64,000 nt of DNA, from NCBI RefSeq assembly GCF_022846255.1, contig NZ_AP025682.1; one strand, 5' to 3'. This document shows, in pieces, positions 20,301 to 29,300 of this stretch. The DNA comes from Escherichia coli (GTDB lineage Bacteria > Pseudomonadota > Gammaproteobacteria > Enterobacterales > Enterobacteriaceae). Numbering within the stretch: the first letter of the stretch is position 1; the number at the start of each line of letters is the position of its first letter. The position numbers were made by a program.

Positions 20301-23300
20301 TGGCAGATTGAACCTCAGCCCGTAGTGGCGGAACAGGTGCTGGATGCGTTGGTGGAACAGTGGCAGCGAACGCCTGCGGACGTTGTTCTCTTTCCGCCGG
20401 GAACGTTTGGCGATGAACTGTCGACCCGGCTGGCCTGGCGTTTACATGGTGCAAGCATCTGCCAGGTGACTTCGTTAGATATTCCAACCGTAAGCGTGCG
20501 CAAATCCCACTGGGGAAATGCGCTAACGGCGACGCTGCAAACAGAAAAACGCCCGCTATGCCTTTCGCTGGCACGTCAGGCGGGAGCAGATAAAAACGCC
20601 ACGTTGCCCTCTGGGATGCAGCAACTGAACATTGTCCCCGGCGCGCTTCCAGACTGGCTTATCAGCGTCGAAAATCTGAAAAATGTTACCCGTGACCCAT
20701 TAGCTGAGGCCAGACGGGTGCTGGTGGTGGGGCAGGGCGGAGAGGCAGATAACCAGGAAATCGCTATGCTGGCAGAAAAGCTGGGAGCCGAAGTGGGCTA
20801 CAGTCGGGCACGAGTGATGAACGGTGGCGTTGATGCCGAAAAAGTGATTGGTATTTCCGGACATCTGCTGGCACCTGAGGTGTGTATTGTTGTTGGCGCT
20901 TCCGGCGCAGCAGCGTTAATGGCGGGCGTACGCAATAGCAAGTTTGTGGTGGCGATTAATCATGACGCCAGTGCAGCGGTATTTTCACAGGCAGATGTTG
21001 GCGTGGTTGATGACTGGAAAGTGGTGCTGGAGGCACTGGTGACAAACATTCACGCAGATTGCCAATAACGTGCTGCCGGATGATCCTGCCGATGGTTCTG
21101 GGCTGGGGACTTGTAGGCCTGATAAGACGCGTCAAGCGTCGCATCAGGCGCTGAATGTCGGATGTGGCGTGCAGCCTACAAATCACACCAAATTCAACTT
21201 GTTACGATTATCCCGTCAAAGCAATTTTTTCGCTAACGTCCAGACCCCAGTATTCGTGGTGGAAAGCGCCACAACACCCGCGTTAATCGCATTACGCGCA
21301 TCTTCTTCATCGCACACCAGCCCGCCAGCAATCAGCGGTTGGCGGATTTTCTCCGTCACCCAGCCCAGCACTTTAGGCATGCAGCCTGGCAGGATCTCAA
21401 TACAATCCGGATTCGATTGCGCAACTTGCTTATCAATGTTGTGAAACGAAATCGAATCAACAATAAACAGTCGATGAATACAGAAAAAACCTTCCGCTCT
21501 TGCTGCTTTCAGCATTGAGGCTTTGGTACTGATAATTCCGTCCGCCTCGGTCACCAGTTTCAAAAACTGAATCACCACTTCTTTATTTGACGCGCCTTCC
21601 AGCAAATCAACATGAATAAAAGCATATTTCCCGGCGTTCTTAATCTTTTTAACGATATTACTAATGGTGCAGATATTGCCGTACAACACGGAAATAAACT
21701 GGCATTCAGAGTCGATTGCCAGTTGCAGGCTGGCATTATCTTTAACGGCAGCAATCACCGGATTCTGGCGGAGCAGGTGTAAGAGGGGCATAAATTATCC
21801 TTATTATTTATCCAAAGCGGTAGGTGATGCCGAATCCGGAAGGCGGATAGCGCCACTGTTGTAGTGTTGATTCGTCGCACAGCAAACGGCAGGTGCCACA
21901 CTCCAGGCAGCCGTGATAATCAACACGTAAGCCACCTTCAGGTGTGAGCGAAAAAAGACCCGCCGGACAAGCGTTAATCAACCGTTGTGCCGTCTGGCGC
22001 TCAACGGAGTCAGCCGGAACAATGTGCGGCGCATCGGCAGCGCGCCAGAGATTACGGGCTACAGACATCGCAGACTCCTGATAACATCGCCCGTCAGATG
22101 CCACAAGCCGTGACGACGTAAATGACGCCAGAGCAACTGGCGCAGCGGTGGAACAGGTGTATTCCCCTGATCCCATAAATCACGGGAAATATCCTGCATT
22201 AACCCAGGCCACACCCGATACCAGCCAGGACGTTGCAAAAGCGCCGGAACATGCTGATAACGCTGTAGAACATCCCACAGCAGGCTGCGCTCTACGTTGT
22301 GATGATAAAGCGGAAACAGATTTTGCGGCTCGCGGTGTTGGCAGGCGCTTATCAGCGTTTGTGCCGCCGCCTGCGCGCCAGTTAGCGCCATATCCATGCC
22401 GCGCACGGAAATTCCGGTATTGACGCAACTGCGCAACGCATCGCCCACCAGCAGCCAGCCGTTACCGGCGTATTGCACCGGCATACTGCGCAGGCCACCT
22501 TCTGGCACCAGATGCGCACCATACTCCAGTGATTCCGTGTTTTTGATAAGCGGGCGCACTGCCGGATGCGTTTTAAAGCGAGCCAGCAGCTCGCTTGCCG
22601 GAACACGACTTTGCGTAAGGGAGGAGAGCGGGCAAACAATCCCTAACGAGAGCGTTTGTTGATTAGTATAAAGAAATGCGCCGCCGGGTAAGTCATCACA
22701 GATCCCGCCGCTGAACAACAACGCTGCGCCTTCGTTATTCTCCAGATGAAAACGTTCTTCAATAGCGGATGGTTCCAGCGTCAGCACTTCTTTGATCCCC
22801 AATGCCATCGCTTCGCCAGCAGGACGAGTCACTAACCCGTGGCGTTCCGCCAGGACGCTGTTGGCACCTTCTGCCAGCACCACATAACGGGCGCGAAGAA
22901 TATCGTCACCACAAATGACACCACACACCCTGCCGTTTTCTTCATACAGTGCATCTACCGTCGCACCGGGGATGCATTCGACACCTTCTTTTTCGGCTTC
23001 GGCAACCAGCCACGGATCGAATCGTGCGCGTAATACACTCCAGGATTCACCGCCGGGCAGTAAGCTGGAAAACGTCGTTGCGCCATCTGGCGTTAACAGA
23101 GAAAGACTTTCGTGAGTGATGCGTCGTTCAAGAGGCGCGGTCAGGTGAAATTGCGGGAGGAGTTCCGCGAGCGCATGGGTGTATAGCCGCCCGCCGGAAA
23201 GATTTTTGCTGCCGGGAATCTCCGCTCGTTCCACTAACAAAACGGATAAACCCGCTCGCGCGCAGCGTAACGCGCAAGCGGTGCCAGCAATTCCGGCACC

Positions 23301-26300: not shown

Positions 26301-29300
26301 GCTGCACTCGGTCGGTCTTGATGCGCTGGCGACCGCCAACGACATGAACCGTAACGTACTCTGCACCTCGAACCCTTACGAGTCGCAGCTGCATGCGGAA
26401 GCATATGAATGGGCGAAGAAAATTTCTGAACATCTGCTGCCTCGTACCCGCGCGTATGCGGAGATCTGGCTCGATCAGGAAAAAGTCGCCACTACTGATG
26501 AAGAGCCGATCCTTGGTCAGACCTACCTGCCGCGTAAGTTCAAAACCACGGTAGTGATCCCGCCGCAGAACGATATCGATCTGCACGCCAACGACATGAA
26601 CTTCGTGGCGATCGCCGAAAACGGCAAGCTGGTGGGCTTTAACCTGCTGGTGGGCGGTGGGCTTTCCATCGAACACGGCAACAAGAAAACCTACGCCCGC
26701 ACGGCGAGTGAGTTTGGCTATCTGCCGCTGGAGCATACGCTGGCGGTGGCGGAAGCCGTCGTGACAACTCAGCGTGACTGGGGTAACCGAACCGATCGTA
26801 AAAATGCCAAAACCAAATACACGCTGGAGCGCGTGGGGGTTGAGACGTTTAAAGCGGAAGTTGAACGTCGCGCGGGGATCAAATTCGAGCCGATTCGCCC
26901 GTATGAGTTTACCGGACGCGGAGATCGTATTGGCTGGGTTAAGGGCATTGATGATAACTGGCACCTGACGCTGTTTATCGAAAATGGTCGCATTCTTGAT
27001 TATCCGGGACGTCCGCTGAAAACCGGCTTGCTGGAGATCGCGAAGATCCACAAAGGTGATTTCCGCATTACGGCGAACCAGAATCTGATCATCGCCGGCG
27101 TGCCGGAAAGCGAGAAAGCGAAGATCGAGAAGATCGCCAAAGAAAGCGGGTTAATGAATGCCGTCACGCCGCAGCGTGAAAACTCAATGGCCTGCGTGTC
27201 ATTCCCGACTTGCCCGCTGGCGATGGCGGAAGCGGAGCGTTTCCTGCCGTCTTTTATCGACAACATCGATAATTTAATGGCGAAACATGGTGTCAGCGAT
27301 GAGCATATCGTGATGCGTGTAACAGGCTGCCCGAACGGTTGTGGTCGCGCGATGCTGGCGGAAGTGGGTCTGGTGGGGAAAGCGCCGGGTCGCTACAACC
27401 TGCATCTTGGCGGCAACCGCATTGGGACACGTATCCCACGGATGTATAAAGAAAACATCACCGAGCCGGAAATCCTGGCGTCGCTTGATGAACTGATAGG
27501 GCGCTGGGCGAAAGAGCGCGAAGTGGGTGAAGGCTTCGGCGACTTTACGGTGCGTGCGGGCATCATTCGCCCGGTGCTCGATCCGGCGCGCGATTTGTGG
27601 GATTAACCATCAGCCCGGTCTTGTAGGCCTGATAAGATGTGTAAGCGTTGCATCAGGCAAGGCAAACAGTGAGGAACTTATGTCCAAACTCGATCTAAAC
27701 GCCCTGAACGAACTGCCAAAGGTAGACCGGATTCTGGCGCTGGCGGAAACTAACGCCCAACTGGAAAAACTGGACGCTGAAGGCCGCGTAGCCTGGGCGC
27801 TGGATAATCTGCCCGGTGAATATGTACTTTCTTCCAGCTTTGGCATTCAGGCGGCGGTGAGTCTGCATTTGGTGAATCAGATTCGCCCGGATATTCCAGT
27901 GATCCTCACCGATACCGGCTATCTGTTCCCGGAAACCTACCGCTTTATTGACGAGTTAACGGACAAACTCAAGCTCAACCTGAAAGTGTACCGTGCTACC
28001 GAAAGCGCCGCCTGGCAGGAAGCACGCTACGGCAAACTGTGGGAGCAGGGCGTTGAAGGCATTGAAAAGTACAATGACATCAACAAAGTCGAACCGATGA
28101 ACCGGGCGCTGAAAGAACTGAATGCGCAAACCTGGTTTGCTGGCCTGCGCCGTGAACAATCCGGCAGTCGCGCCAATTTACCGGTGCTGGCAATTCAGCG
28201 TGGCGTATTTAAAGTGCTGCCGATTATCGACTGGGATAACCGAACTATTTATCAGTACCTGCAAAAACATGGCCTGAAATATCACCCATTATGGGATGAA
28301 GGATATTTATCGGTGGGCGATACCCATACAACCCGTAAATGGGAACCCGGCATGGCGGAAGAAGAAACGCGTTTCTTTGGCTTAAAAAGGGAATGTGGAT
28401 TACACGAAGGGTAAATATTGCCGGATAAATTAAACGCCTCTGTCAGAAATGATGGGGGCGTTTTTATTTTGCGAGCAGCATTCCGGCATTTAAACGAGAA
28501 CGTCGCAGGGAGAATTAACAGGTATAGAATGGCATTGGGTGCTTGAGGCTGTCTGGCGTTAAGCATTCGCGAGGTTCCAGATGGACAAAAGCCCCAGGCG
28601 ATATTTCTATCAACCTGAGGCCTACGTTCGAACCTAAGCAATTCGGATGTTAGTCTCTTCTTTGCAGGGAGGCAAGACATGCTGACAAAATATGCCCTTG
28701 TGGCAATCATCGTACTGTGTTGTACAGTACTGGGATTCACGTTGATGGTAGGCGACTCGTTGTGTGAGTTGAGTATCAGAGAACGTGGTATGGAGTTTAA
28801 GGCAGTTCTCGCTTACGAATCGAAGAAGTAGCCACCACGCGGGGTAAAACCCCGCGTACTGAATTGTGATGGTTTGGTCTCCTGCACCCTTTTTTATACT
28901 CTGTTTCTGGTGGCATTGATTTCCTGCAGGCAAGGGAGTAATCATTTCAAACCCATTAAGATGCCTTCGCCAGCTCCTTCACCAACGGTAGCATTATCCG
29001 CATAACATCACGGCAGCGACGTTCTATTCTTCCAGGAAGTGCCTTATCAATATGCTGTTGATTATCCAGTCTTACGTCATGCCAGCTATTTCCCGCAGGG
29101 AATGCGGCTGTTTTTGCGCGTTGCTGATAACCATCCTTATTGCCAAGATTCCAGTTAGTCGCTTCCACCGAAAGTACAGTAATACCGGCTTTGTCGAATA
29201 TTTCTGCGTCATTACAACACCCGGTGCCTTTCGGATAGTTTTTATTCAAACCTGGATTTGTGGTGGCGGCAATTCCATGGCTGCGGGCAATTGCCAGCGC

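Follow-up and report, generated by a model that had tools for sequence, protein, structure and literature searches.

Two short palindromic sequences in a 64,000-nucleotide stretch of the Escherichia coli chromosome (contig NZ_AP025682.1 of the assembly GCF_022846255.1, the whole stretch being called the window below), the one between the convergent genes ygcQ and ygcP (site 1) and the other between the tandem genes cysI and cysH (site 2), are genuine E. coli copies of the repetitive extragenic palindromic (REP) element, belong to its z2 class and represent an ordinary, already known kind of repeat. According to the overall account, in which considerable confidence may be placed, both are z2-class REPs, with site 1 as the decayed relic of a BIME-2 array (bacterial interspersed mosaic element) and site 2 as a lone z2 unit, and their side effects on the local mRNAs are probably modest. 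The REP units which a preliminary description of this DNA had placed at 21112-21180 and 27622-27659 are confirmed by the matches to the z2 consensus, the GTAG motif, the AA/GC bubble of the hairpins, the many copies per genome and the catalogue name REP201 of the first unit.

Identity of the elements

The REPs of E. coli were characterized by Ton-Hoang et al. (PMC3333891) as imperfect palindromes of 30-40 nucleotides (nt), with a conserved GTAG on the 5' side of the palindrome foot and a stem mismatch needed for the binding of TnpA-REP, the REP-associated tyrosine transposase, and were divided into the classes y, z1 and z2, with 584 copies in the strain K-12. The sequence TGTAGGCCTGATAAG was found exactly twice in the window, at 21112 and 27622, at least two matches of it being obtained in just one of 100 shuffles, and site 2 fitted a z2-type pattern with three mismatches, with zero matches to it in the shuffles. 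The window was searched by blastn-short with the three E. coli REP consensus sequences taken from the Methods section of the paper on the IS621 bridge RNA (PMC11208160), and the z2 consensus matched site 1 at 21113-21149 (37 nt, 94.6% identity, one extra loop base, E 2.7e-9) and site 2 at 27623-27658 (36 nt, 86.1% identity, E 6e-4); for the K-12 allele of site 2, the identity to the same consensus was 91.9%. No further significant REP match was given by these three sequences elsewhere in the window, and the weak y-type matches at 3566-3578 and near 63000 were rejected as short chance matches with no surrounding REP structure. Thus, the consensus search, which had been named in the preliminary description as the way to check its claim, returned a z2 match at each site rather than no REP match.

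The other features of the element were found at both sites as well. The GTAG stands directly 5' of the palindrome (21113-21116 at site 1 and 27623-27626 at site 2), the folding of either hairpin gives a 2x2 internal loop with AA opposite GC, i.e., an imperfect palindrome, and either sequence is intergenic. The copy number was assessed in 5,426 complete E. coli genomes with a 75-base query over site 1 and a 57-base query over site 2; the former matched at least 40 places per genome and the latter a median of 22 places per genome, in 5,425 of the genomes in each case, and the DNA under every match listed for the two queries was free of annotated features. The supplementary table of a 2026 preprint contains for K-12 the entry 'REP201, Convergent, 2894875-2894809, ygcP, ygcQ', the coordinates of which convert to 21112-21178 of the window, that is, to site 1; because of this catalogue name, the finding is to be regarded as already known. 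Site 2 is probably the K-12 REP200, as deduced from the numbering, since the element between cysI and cysH is the sole consensus-matching REP between REP199, near K-12 2866504, and REP201.

The only REP-derived family of Rfam is naRNA4, built from REP325, and there is no REP family as such in this database. The Rfam models at their gathering thresholds gave nothing at site 1 or site 2, whereas a sub-threshold match to naRNA4 (RF02564) was found at site 1, on the minus strand at 21116-21199 (E 2e-4), with no match of this family at site 2. From that match, site 1 could be supposed to encode a naRNA4-type nucleoid-associated non-coding RNA which condenses the chromosome together with HU. Such a role is, however, improbable in the extreme, as the match scores 39.3 bits, well short of the gathering value of 59.5, the unit has only a truncated y half, and REP325/naRNA4 itself was reported in the 2026 preprint to have no measurable effect on nucleoid compaction.

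Structure and decay of the ygcQ-ygcP element

The spacer between ygcQ and ygcP carries, besides the z2 REP, the remnants of two y-type units, all described here on the plus strand. The first y-type inverted REP remnant, GCCGGATG|ATCCTGCCGAT (21075-21093), has lost about 15 nt of the hairpin centre, as judged from K-12 and from the first y unit of the orthologous Escherichia albertii array; its terminal CCTAC is mutated in this lineage, K-12 retaining GCCTAC, and it is no longer foldable. The linker GGTTCTGGGCTGGGGACTT (21094-21112), a BIME motif recurring between y and z2 in the E. albertii array, connects it to the intact z2-class REP (21113-21149), which is supported by both the consensus match and the folding, and in which the GTAG is followed by the imperfect palindrome at 21117-21149 with TCAA in the loop. 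This hairpin folds on both strands, and the z2 unit includes on the minus strand, at 21113-21123, the target ATCAGGCCTAC of the insertion sequence (IS) IS621. The short (S-type) linker GCTGAAT (21150-21156), identical to the z2-y linker of the E. albertii array, is followed by the second y-type inverted remnant, GTCGGATGTGGCGTGCA|GCCTAC (21157-21179), which is shorter by an internal deletion of 11 nt than the y units preserved intact in Escherichia sp. (locus L009) and E. albertii (locus L006). This deletion is common to K-12 and to the species represented by locus L005, and the CTAC kept in the unit is able to base-pair, in the predicted fold, with the z2 GTAG.

Orthologous loci of other Escherichia lineages were retrieved via a cysH scan. 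The ygcQ/ygcP locus of E. albertii holds an array of five units, y, z2, y, z2 and y, joined by the linkers GGTTCTGG(A/G)CTCGGG.. and GCTGAAT, while Escherichia sp. MOD1-EC7003 has a single intact y unit there and the L005 species a single y unit with the 11-nt internal deletion. The order of the units at site 1, their alternating orientation and the linkers match the intact E. albertii array, both y units being internally deleted (by 15 and 11 nt, respectively), and the BIME-derived share of the ygcQ-ygcP spacer comes to about 105 of 147 nt. As far as can be read from these alignments, site 1 is the remnant of a decayed BIME-2 array (y, z2, y), with the z2 REP as the sole foldable unit, and it is considered a remnant rather than a functional BIME because both y units are internally deleted. 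The range 21112-21180 of the preliminary description therefore includes the intact REP, but its rest is the y unit which lost 11 nt, and the further remnant at 21075-21093 lies outside of it.

The cysI-cysH element and its alleles

Site 2 is a single, partly decayed z2-class REP on the plus strand (27623-27658), as indicated by the consensus match, the folding and the series of alleles. Its outer stem is formed by 27627-33 with 27652-58 and its inner stem by 27636-40 with 27645-49; of the five base pairs of the latter, three are G·U in the mRNA sense. The minus strand carries the IS621 target at 27623-27633. The minimum-free-energy fold of the cysJIH mRNA predicts an extended structure at 27618-27663, in which an outer helix of 27618-27622 with 27659-63 would enclose the GUAG and the REP hairpin, the base of this helix being 11 nt past the cysI stop codon. 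The element is fixed in E. coli: it was present in 5,423 of the 5,426 genomes, with a spacer length varying by no more than 1 nt. In E. albertii and the L005 species, the cysI-cysH junction contains three units, namely a z1- or z2-type REP, a y inverted REP and a z2 REP, and the E. coli unit resembles the cysH-proximal unit of those arrays, while its upstream flank resembles the flank of the first unit. Site 2 has probably descended, by this comparison, from an array of two or three units such as those of E. albertii and a cryptic Escherichia lineage.

The regions of both sites are those of a phylogroup B2 chromosome and are identical (100% over the regions searched) to those of UTI89, S88, APEC O1 and ATCC 11775, and it is within this phylogroup that the site-2 stem has changed. 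The inner stem-loop is GACGC-GTGA-GCGTC in SE11 and E69, has the same stem with a GTAA loop in E. albertii and L005, differs from that of SE11 and E69 by one extra A (a bulge) in K-12, and is GACGT-GTGA-GCGTT in ST131 and NQ3 and GATGT-GTAA-GCGTT in the window (27636-27649). The comparison of the window with L087, L088 and K-12 gave three stepwise C>T changes of the plus strand in the stem within B2; therefore, G-C pairs become G·U pairs in the cysJIH mRNA, and the hairpin of the window allele has an energy of -14.9 kcal/mol in the mRNA sense (ancestral allele, -20.5) and of -8.6 kcal/mol in the antisense (ancestral allele, -20.6). The window allele was found in 478 of the 5,426 genomes. Gene conversion was tried as its origin and rejected, since every genome that carries the allele has just one copy of it, so that it arose in place. 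All three changes keep the pairing in the mRNA sense, for which p = 0.125 under symmetric transitions, and the pattern is a weak hint of constraint at the RNA level, as a C>T bias on the non-template strand would give the same pattern. The asymmetry between G·U and A·C in the REP stems across species was discarded as evidence, G·U pairs being already part of the y consensus, and so was its residual signal of 7 to 1, which is small, partly non-independent and confounded by the non-template C>T bias.

Insertion sequences at the orthologous sites

The natural target of IS621 is ATCAGGCCTAC, with the CT core (PMC11208160), which is the reverse complement of GTAGGCCTGAT, and the latter is present at both sites of the window. 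In the genome NZ_CP116241.1, a copy of IS621, an IS110-family bridge-RNA recombinase element, was found in the GTAG of the cysI-cysH REP, bordered on both sides by an AG dinucleotide and bringing the spacer to 1,354 nt. This copy occupies 2702-4055 of the locus L003, orthologous to 27607-27679 of the window, its transposase gene is annotated as frameshifted, and cysH is moved by it 1.3 kb away from the cysJ promoter. In the genome NZ_AP024112.1, the loop of the z2 REP between ygcQ and ygcP is the exact insertion point of an IS3-family element, with a duplication of TCAA flanking it and the junctions ...GACGCGTCAA|IS|TCAAGCGTC...; the insertion is at 4571-6002 of the locus L085, orthologous to 21130-21133 of the window. 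IS1397 is an IS3-family element known as REP-specific, and the element of NZ_AP024112.1 may be called IS1397-like on its choice of target only. An uninterrupted site 1 is absent from about 600 of 5,425 E. coli genomes. The use of the orthologous sites as targets by REP-specific insertion sequences therefore supports the REP identity of both, and two spots are flagged in this way where such REP-targeting elements (IS621, IS1397-like) land in other strains.

Intergenic lengths and the cysI-cysH junction across species

The preliminary description had explained the lengths of the two intergenic regions by the repeats, and the relatives that have no REP there bear this out. The convergent spacers between ygcQ-like genes and ygcP are mostly of 16-37 nt in Citrobacter, Lelliottia, Yokenella and others where no REP is present, and the REP-free junctions of cysI and cysH are of 15 nt; the repeats therefore account for the spacer lengths. 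The latter junction was surveyed in 80 species-representative loci of Enterobacteriaceae (L004-L083), in which its length ranged from 15 to 203 nt, was 35 nt or less in 10 species and exactly 15 nt (CNACGAGAGGTNANT) in eight of these, and the spacer folded at -15 kcal/mol or better in 69 of the 80 species. The occupants differ by lineage: z/y REPs in Escherichia, Salmonella and Citrobacter, Klebsiella/Enterobacter-type REPs, a Cedecea-type repeat, the boxC-like repeats CCCTCTCC...GGAGAGGG, and a lone hairpin in two Pluralibacter genomes. The junction is, thus, an unusually busy site of landing or retention of such repeats, and its survey may be of modest use for studies of the REP effects on operon expression.

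Several single junctions were recorded in the course of the survey. The lone Pluralibacter sequence is GTTCCCCGCGTAAGCGGGGATAAAC in L046 (7958-8000), with a close variant in L051 (7876-8000), and closely resembles the type I-E CRISPR repeat. Sister species of Kluyvera carry different repeat families between cysI and cysH. The junction of 'Escherichia sp. E1V33' (L004) is boxC-like, the same as in Pseudocitrobacter faecalis (L010), and that of 'Pseudocitrobacter vendiensis' (L007) contains an Escherichia-type z1 plus y BIME; the mismatch between name and content in L004 and L007 may be due to mislabelling or recombination.

Open reading frames (ORFs) called across the repeats had been termed spurious in the preliminary description. 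Such ORFs do result from mechanical calling, namely 21070-21444 on the plus strand and a GTG-extended cysH ORF starting from 27527, but RefSeq annotates neither of them. The value of the finding is mainly in annotation, since two intergenic lengths are explained and caution is advised for the ORF calls across these repeats; the refinements added here (the BIME-2 decay, the third relic, the B2 allele, the IS insertions and the junction survey) leave it known and ordinary.

Transcription, possible mRNA effects and alternative explanations

REPs are palindromic repeats that do not move autonomously; their spread is attributed to TnpA-REP acting in trans, and tnpA-REP has been lost in some B2 strains. 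Once transcribed, their GC-rich hairpins would act mainly as barriers to the 3'-5' exonucleases PNPase and RNase II and might additionally serve as weak Rho-assisted attenuators. The block of both exonucleases by REPs, with the Rho-terminated transcripts trimmed back to the hairpin, has been described (PMC6061677), and according to the 2026 preprint, REP325 in yjdMN gives a partial, partly Rho-dependent attenuation, and genome-wide the expression is upstream-biased in REP tandem pairs and raised in convergent pairs. The suggestion of the preliminary description that the units may stabilise mRNA or act as partial terminators agrees with this body of work. Site 1, as a convergent case, may provide a protected 3' end for the mRNAs of both ygcQ and ygcP, which would matter because both genes lack an intrinsic terminator; within the 3' end of ygcQ, 85 nt from REP201, a site that is Rho-dependent in vitro has been listed. 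Site 2, as a tandem case, may favour the cysJI segment over cysH, with the operon not being terminated there. A REP effect on mRNA is plausible, by analogy with these cases, at both ygcQ/ygcP and cysJIH, but any such effect is probably modest, and the elements are probably best seen as tolerated relics of mobile DNA with local side effects on mRNA.

The position and composition of the hairpins would also suit intrinsic terminators, bidirectional for ygcQ/ygcP and acting as an internal attenuator in cysJIH, as both are GC-rich and rightly placed and good folds were obtained for either strand of site 1 (z about -3.8 and -3.9). The terminator scan, however, gave no terminator-like site at either REP, no T run following either hairpin on either strand, and the single canonical terminator-like hairpin of the operon, followed by a T run, was called after cysH, at 28432-28463. 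The scan for promoters gave no promoter-like site for cysH, which presumably depends on read-through, and site 2, with no terminator there, must therefore permit it. The two sites are not intrinsic terminators, and the assignment of the palindromes to this type deserves hardly any credence.

Several points weigh against the account of REPs with modest mRNA effects. Two of the three units of site 1 are unable to fold, and the site-2 hairpin of this strain is weakened to -14.9 kcal/mol, the fold of the whole 73-nt spacer (-22.9 kcal/mol, z -1.6) being not significantly better than those of shuffles; terminal REPs were not associated genome-wide with longer mRNA half-lives in the 2026 preprint; and no RNA 3' end was found at either REP in the curated, thresholded lists of K-12 Term-seq (PMC7815308, supplementary files 1 and 3), the cys operon being off in rich medium. 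Accordingly, it is quite possible, though judged the less probable case, that the REPs are real but inert here, i.e., neutral selfish-DNA relics in non-coding nucleotides, with no measurable effect on ygcQ, ygcP or cysJIH. The internal deletions in two of the three site-1 units, the substitutions gained by the site-2 REP in B2 and the roughly 600 genomes that tolerate an interrupted site 1 speak for such neutrality, together with the Term-seq lists that have no REP-linked 3' ends and the missing half-life effect of terminal REPs. It is harder to reconcile with neutrality that site 2 is kept in 5,423 of 5,426 genomes with its length varying by at most 1 nt, that the three stem substitutions all retain the mRNA-sense pairing, that a strong hairpin repeat stands in the cysI-cysH junction of 69 of the 80 species, and that genome-wide expression biases around REPs have been reported.

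The sole cysI-linked end of the curated K-12 Term-seq data (PMC7815308), a strong one, is at K-12 2888409 on the minus strand, equivalent to 27584 on the plus strand of the window, which places it upstream of the first base of the cysI stop by 20 nt, of the REP stem by 43 nt and of cysH by 97 nt. It bears on a further explanation, in which the site-2 REP would stall the ribosomes terminating at the cysI stop, leading to mRNA cleavage behind the ribosome, trans-translation, a lower CysI level and the uncoupling of cysH. As Liang, Rudd and Deutscher (2015) are cited in PMC12306157, ribosomes are stalled and mRNA cleavage is induced by REPs that start no more than 15 nt past a stop; measured from the cysI stop, the TGTAGG is at 15 nt and the base of the predicted extended helix at 11 nt, which is within the rule in that cited form, and the K-12 end is at about the position expected for the rear edge of a ribosome pausing on this stop codon. 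On the other hand, the spacing is exactly on the boundary of the rule, whose way of counting is uncertain from the citation, the end was mapped in K-12 and not in the window strain, and the 60 nt upstream of it also fold to -18.9 kcal/mol, so that the end may simply mark a protected decay intermediate; the stalling appears unlikely. The end itself may be caused by ribosome-linked cleavage, by a protected decay intermediate or by regulated termination, the decay intermediate being an equally simple cause as the ribosome-linked cleavage.

It may also be asked whether the cysI-cysH hairpin has been selected for, i.e., exapted to tune CysJI against CysH by exonuclease blocking or ribosome stalling. 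The idea derives from the junction hairpin present in 69 of 80 species, the descent of these hairpins from at least four unrelated repeat families, the G·U pairing of the B2 allele and the K-12 RNA end one ribosome-length upstream, and seems rather unlikely; if true, it would make the cysI-cysH REP a regulator of the CysJI:CysH output.

Genes and local context

In the RefSeq annotation of UTI89, whose locus is identical, ygcQ (plus strand) converges with ygcP (minus strand), followed by ygcO, ygcN and queD (minus strand) and cysJ, cysI and cysH (plus strand). The gene ygcQ, of the electron-transfer flavoprotein alpha/FixB family, occupies 20208-21068 on the plus strand by the UTI89 annotation and the ORF list, with the stop codon at 21066-21068 and the z2 REP 44 nt downstream, and the convergent ygcP, of the glycerol-3-phosphate-responsive antiterminator family, occupies 21216-21791 on the minus strand (ORF list, RefSeq). 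On the plus strand, cysI, encoding the sulfite reductase haemoprotein subunit, is at 25894-27606 with the stop TAA at 27604-27606 (ORF list, RefSeq), and cysH, encoding the PAPS (3'-phosphoadenosine 5'-phosphosulfate) reductase, is at 27680-28414 (RefSeq). The spacer that separates them and holds site 2 is of 73 nt here vs. 74 nt in K-12, and the cysH start region (27671-27682), with the Shine-Dalgarno sequence GAGGA at 27671-27675 and the ATG at 27680-27682 as read from the sequence and the RefSeq start, begins 13 nt past the REP hairpin. The gene labels ygcQ/ygcP and cysI/cysH of the preliminary description were correct, but the two sites had both been assigned to operon boundaries, whereas the cysI-cysH site is inside the cysJIH operon, as the same description had itself indicated in speaking of effects within cysJIH.

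Downstream of cysH, the terminator is followed by a hok/sok module (Rfam sok, 28537-28694, 112 bits), iap (28956-29993, minus strand) and cysD. The type I-E CRISPR-Cas locus, which in K-12 extends there from cas3 to cas2 plus the array, is absent between cysH and iap here (28414-30245 of the window), and no direct repeats of at least 20 nt were found within 28400-30300.

Comparison with known systems

Both sites resemble a Rho-independent terminator by a GC-rich stem-loop downstream of a stop codon and differ from it by having no U tract. The best available model of site 2, as to how a REP within an operon might shift expression between the upstream and the downstream gene, is REP325 of yjdMN, which likewise lies between two genes of one operon and folds in the mRNA; however, REP325 has 12 hairpins vs. 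the one weakened hairpin of site 2, whose role is suggested by this analogy. Site 1 shares with BIME-2 elements the order y, z2, y, the alternating orientation and the linkers, and with K-12 REP201 the coordinates, while only one palindrome is left in it and the 5' y remnant is outside the REP201 coordinates. In comparison with the z2 REPs of E. coli, site 2 in B2 has three C>T changes in the stem and one change in the loop relative to the ancestral E. coli allele, and the pairing of its inner stem is lost in the DNA and in antisense RNA; at both sites, the likeness to this class consists in the length of 36-37 nt, the 5' GTAG, the AA/GC bubble, the extragenic position, the high copy number and the IS621 target.

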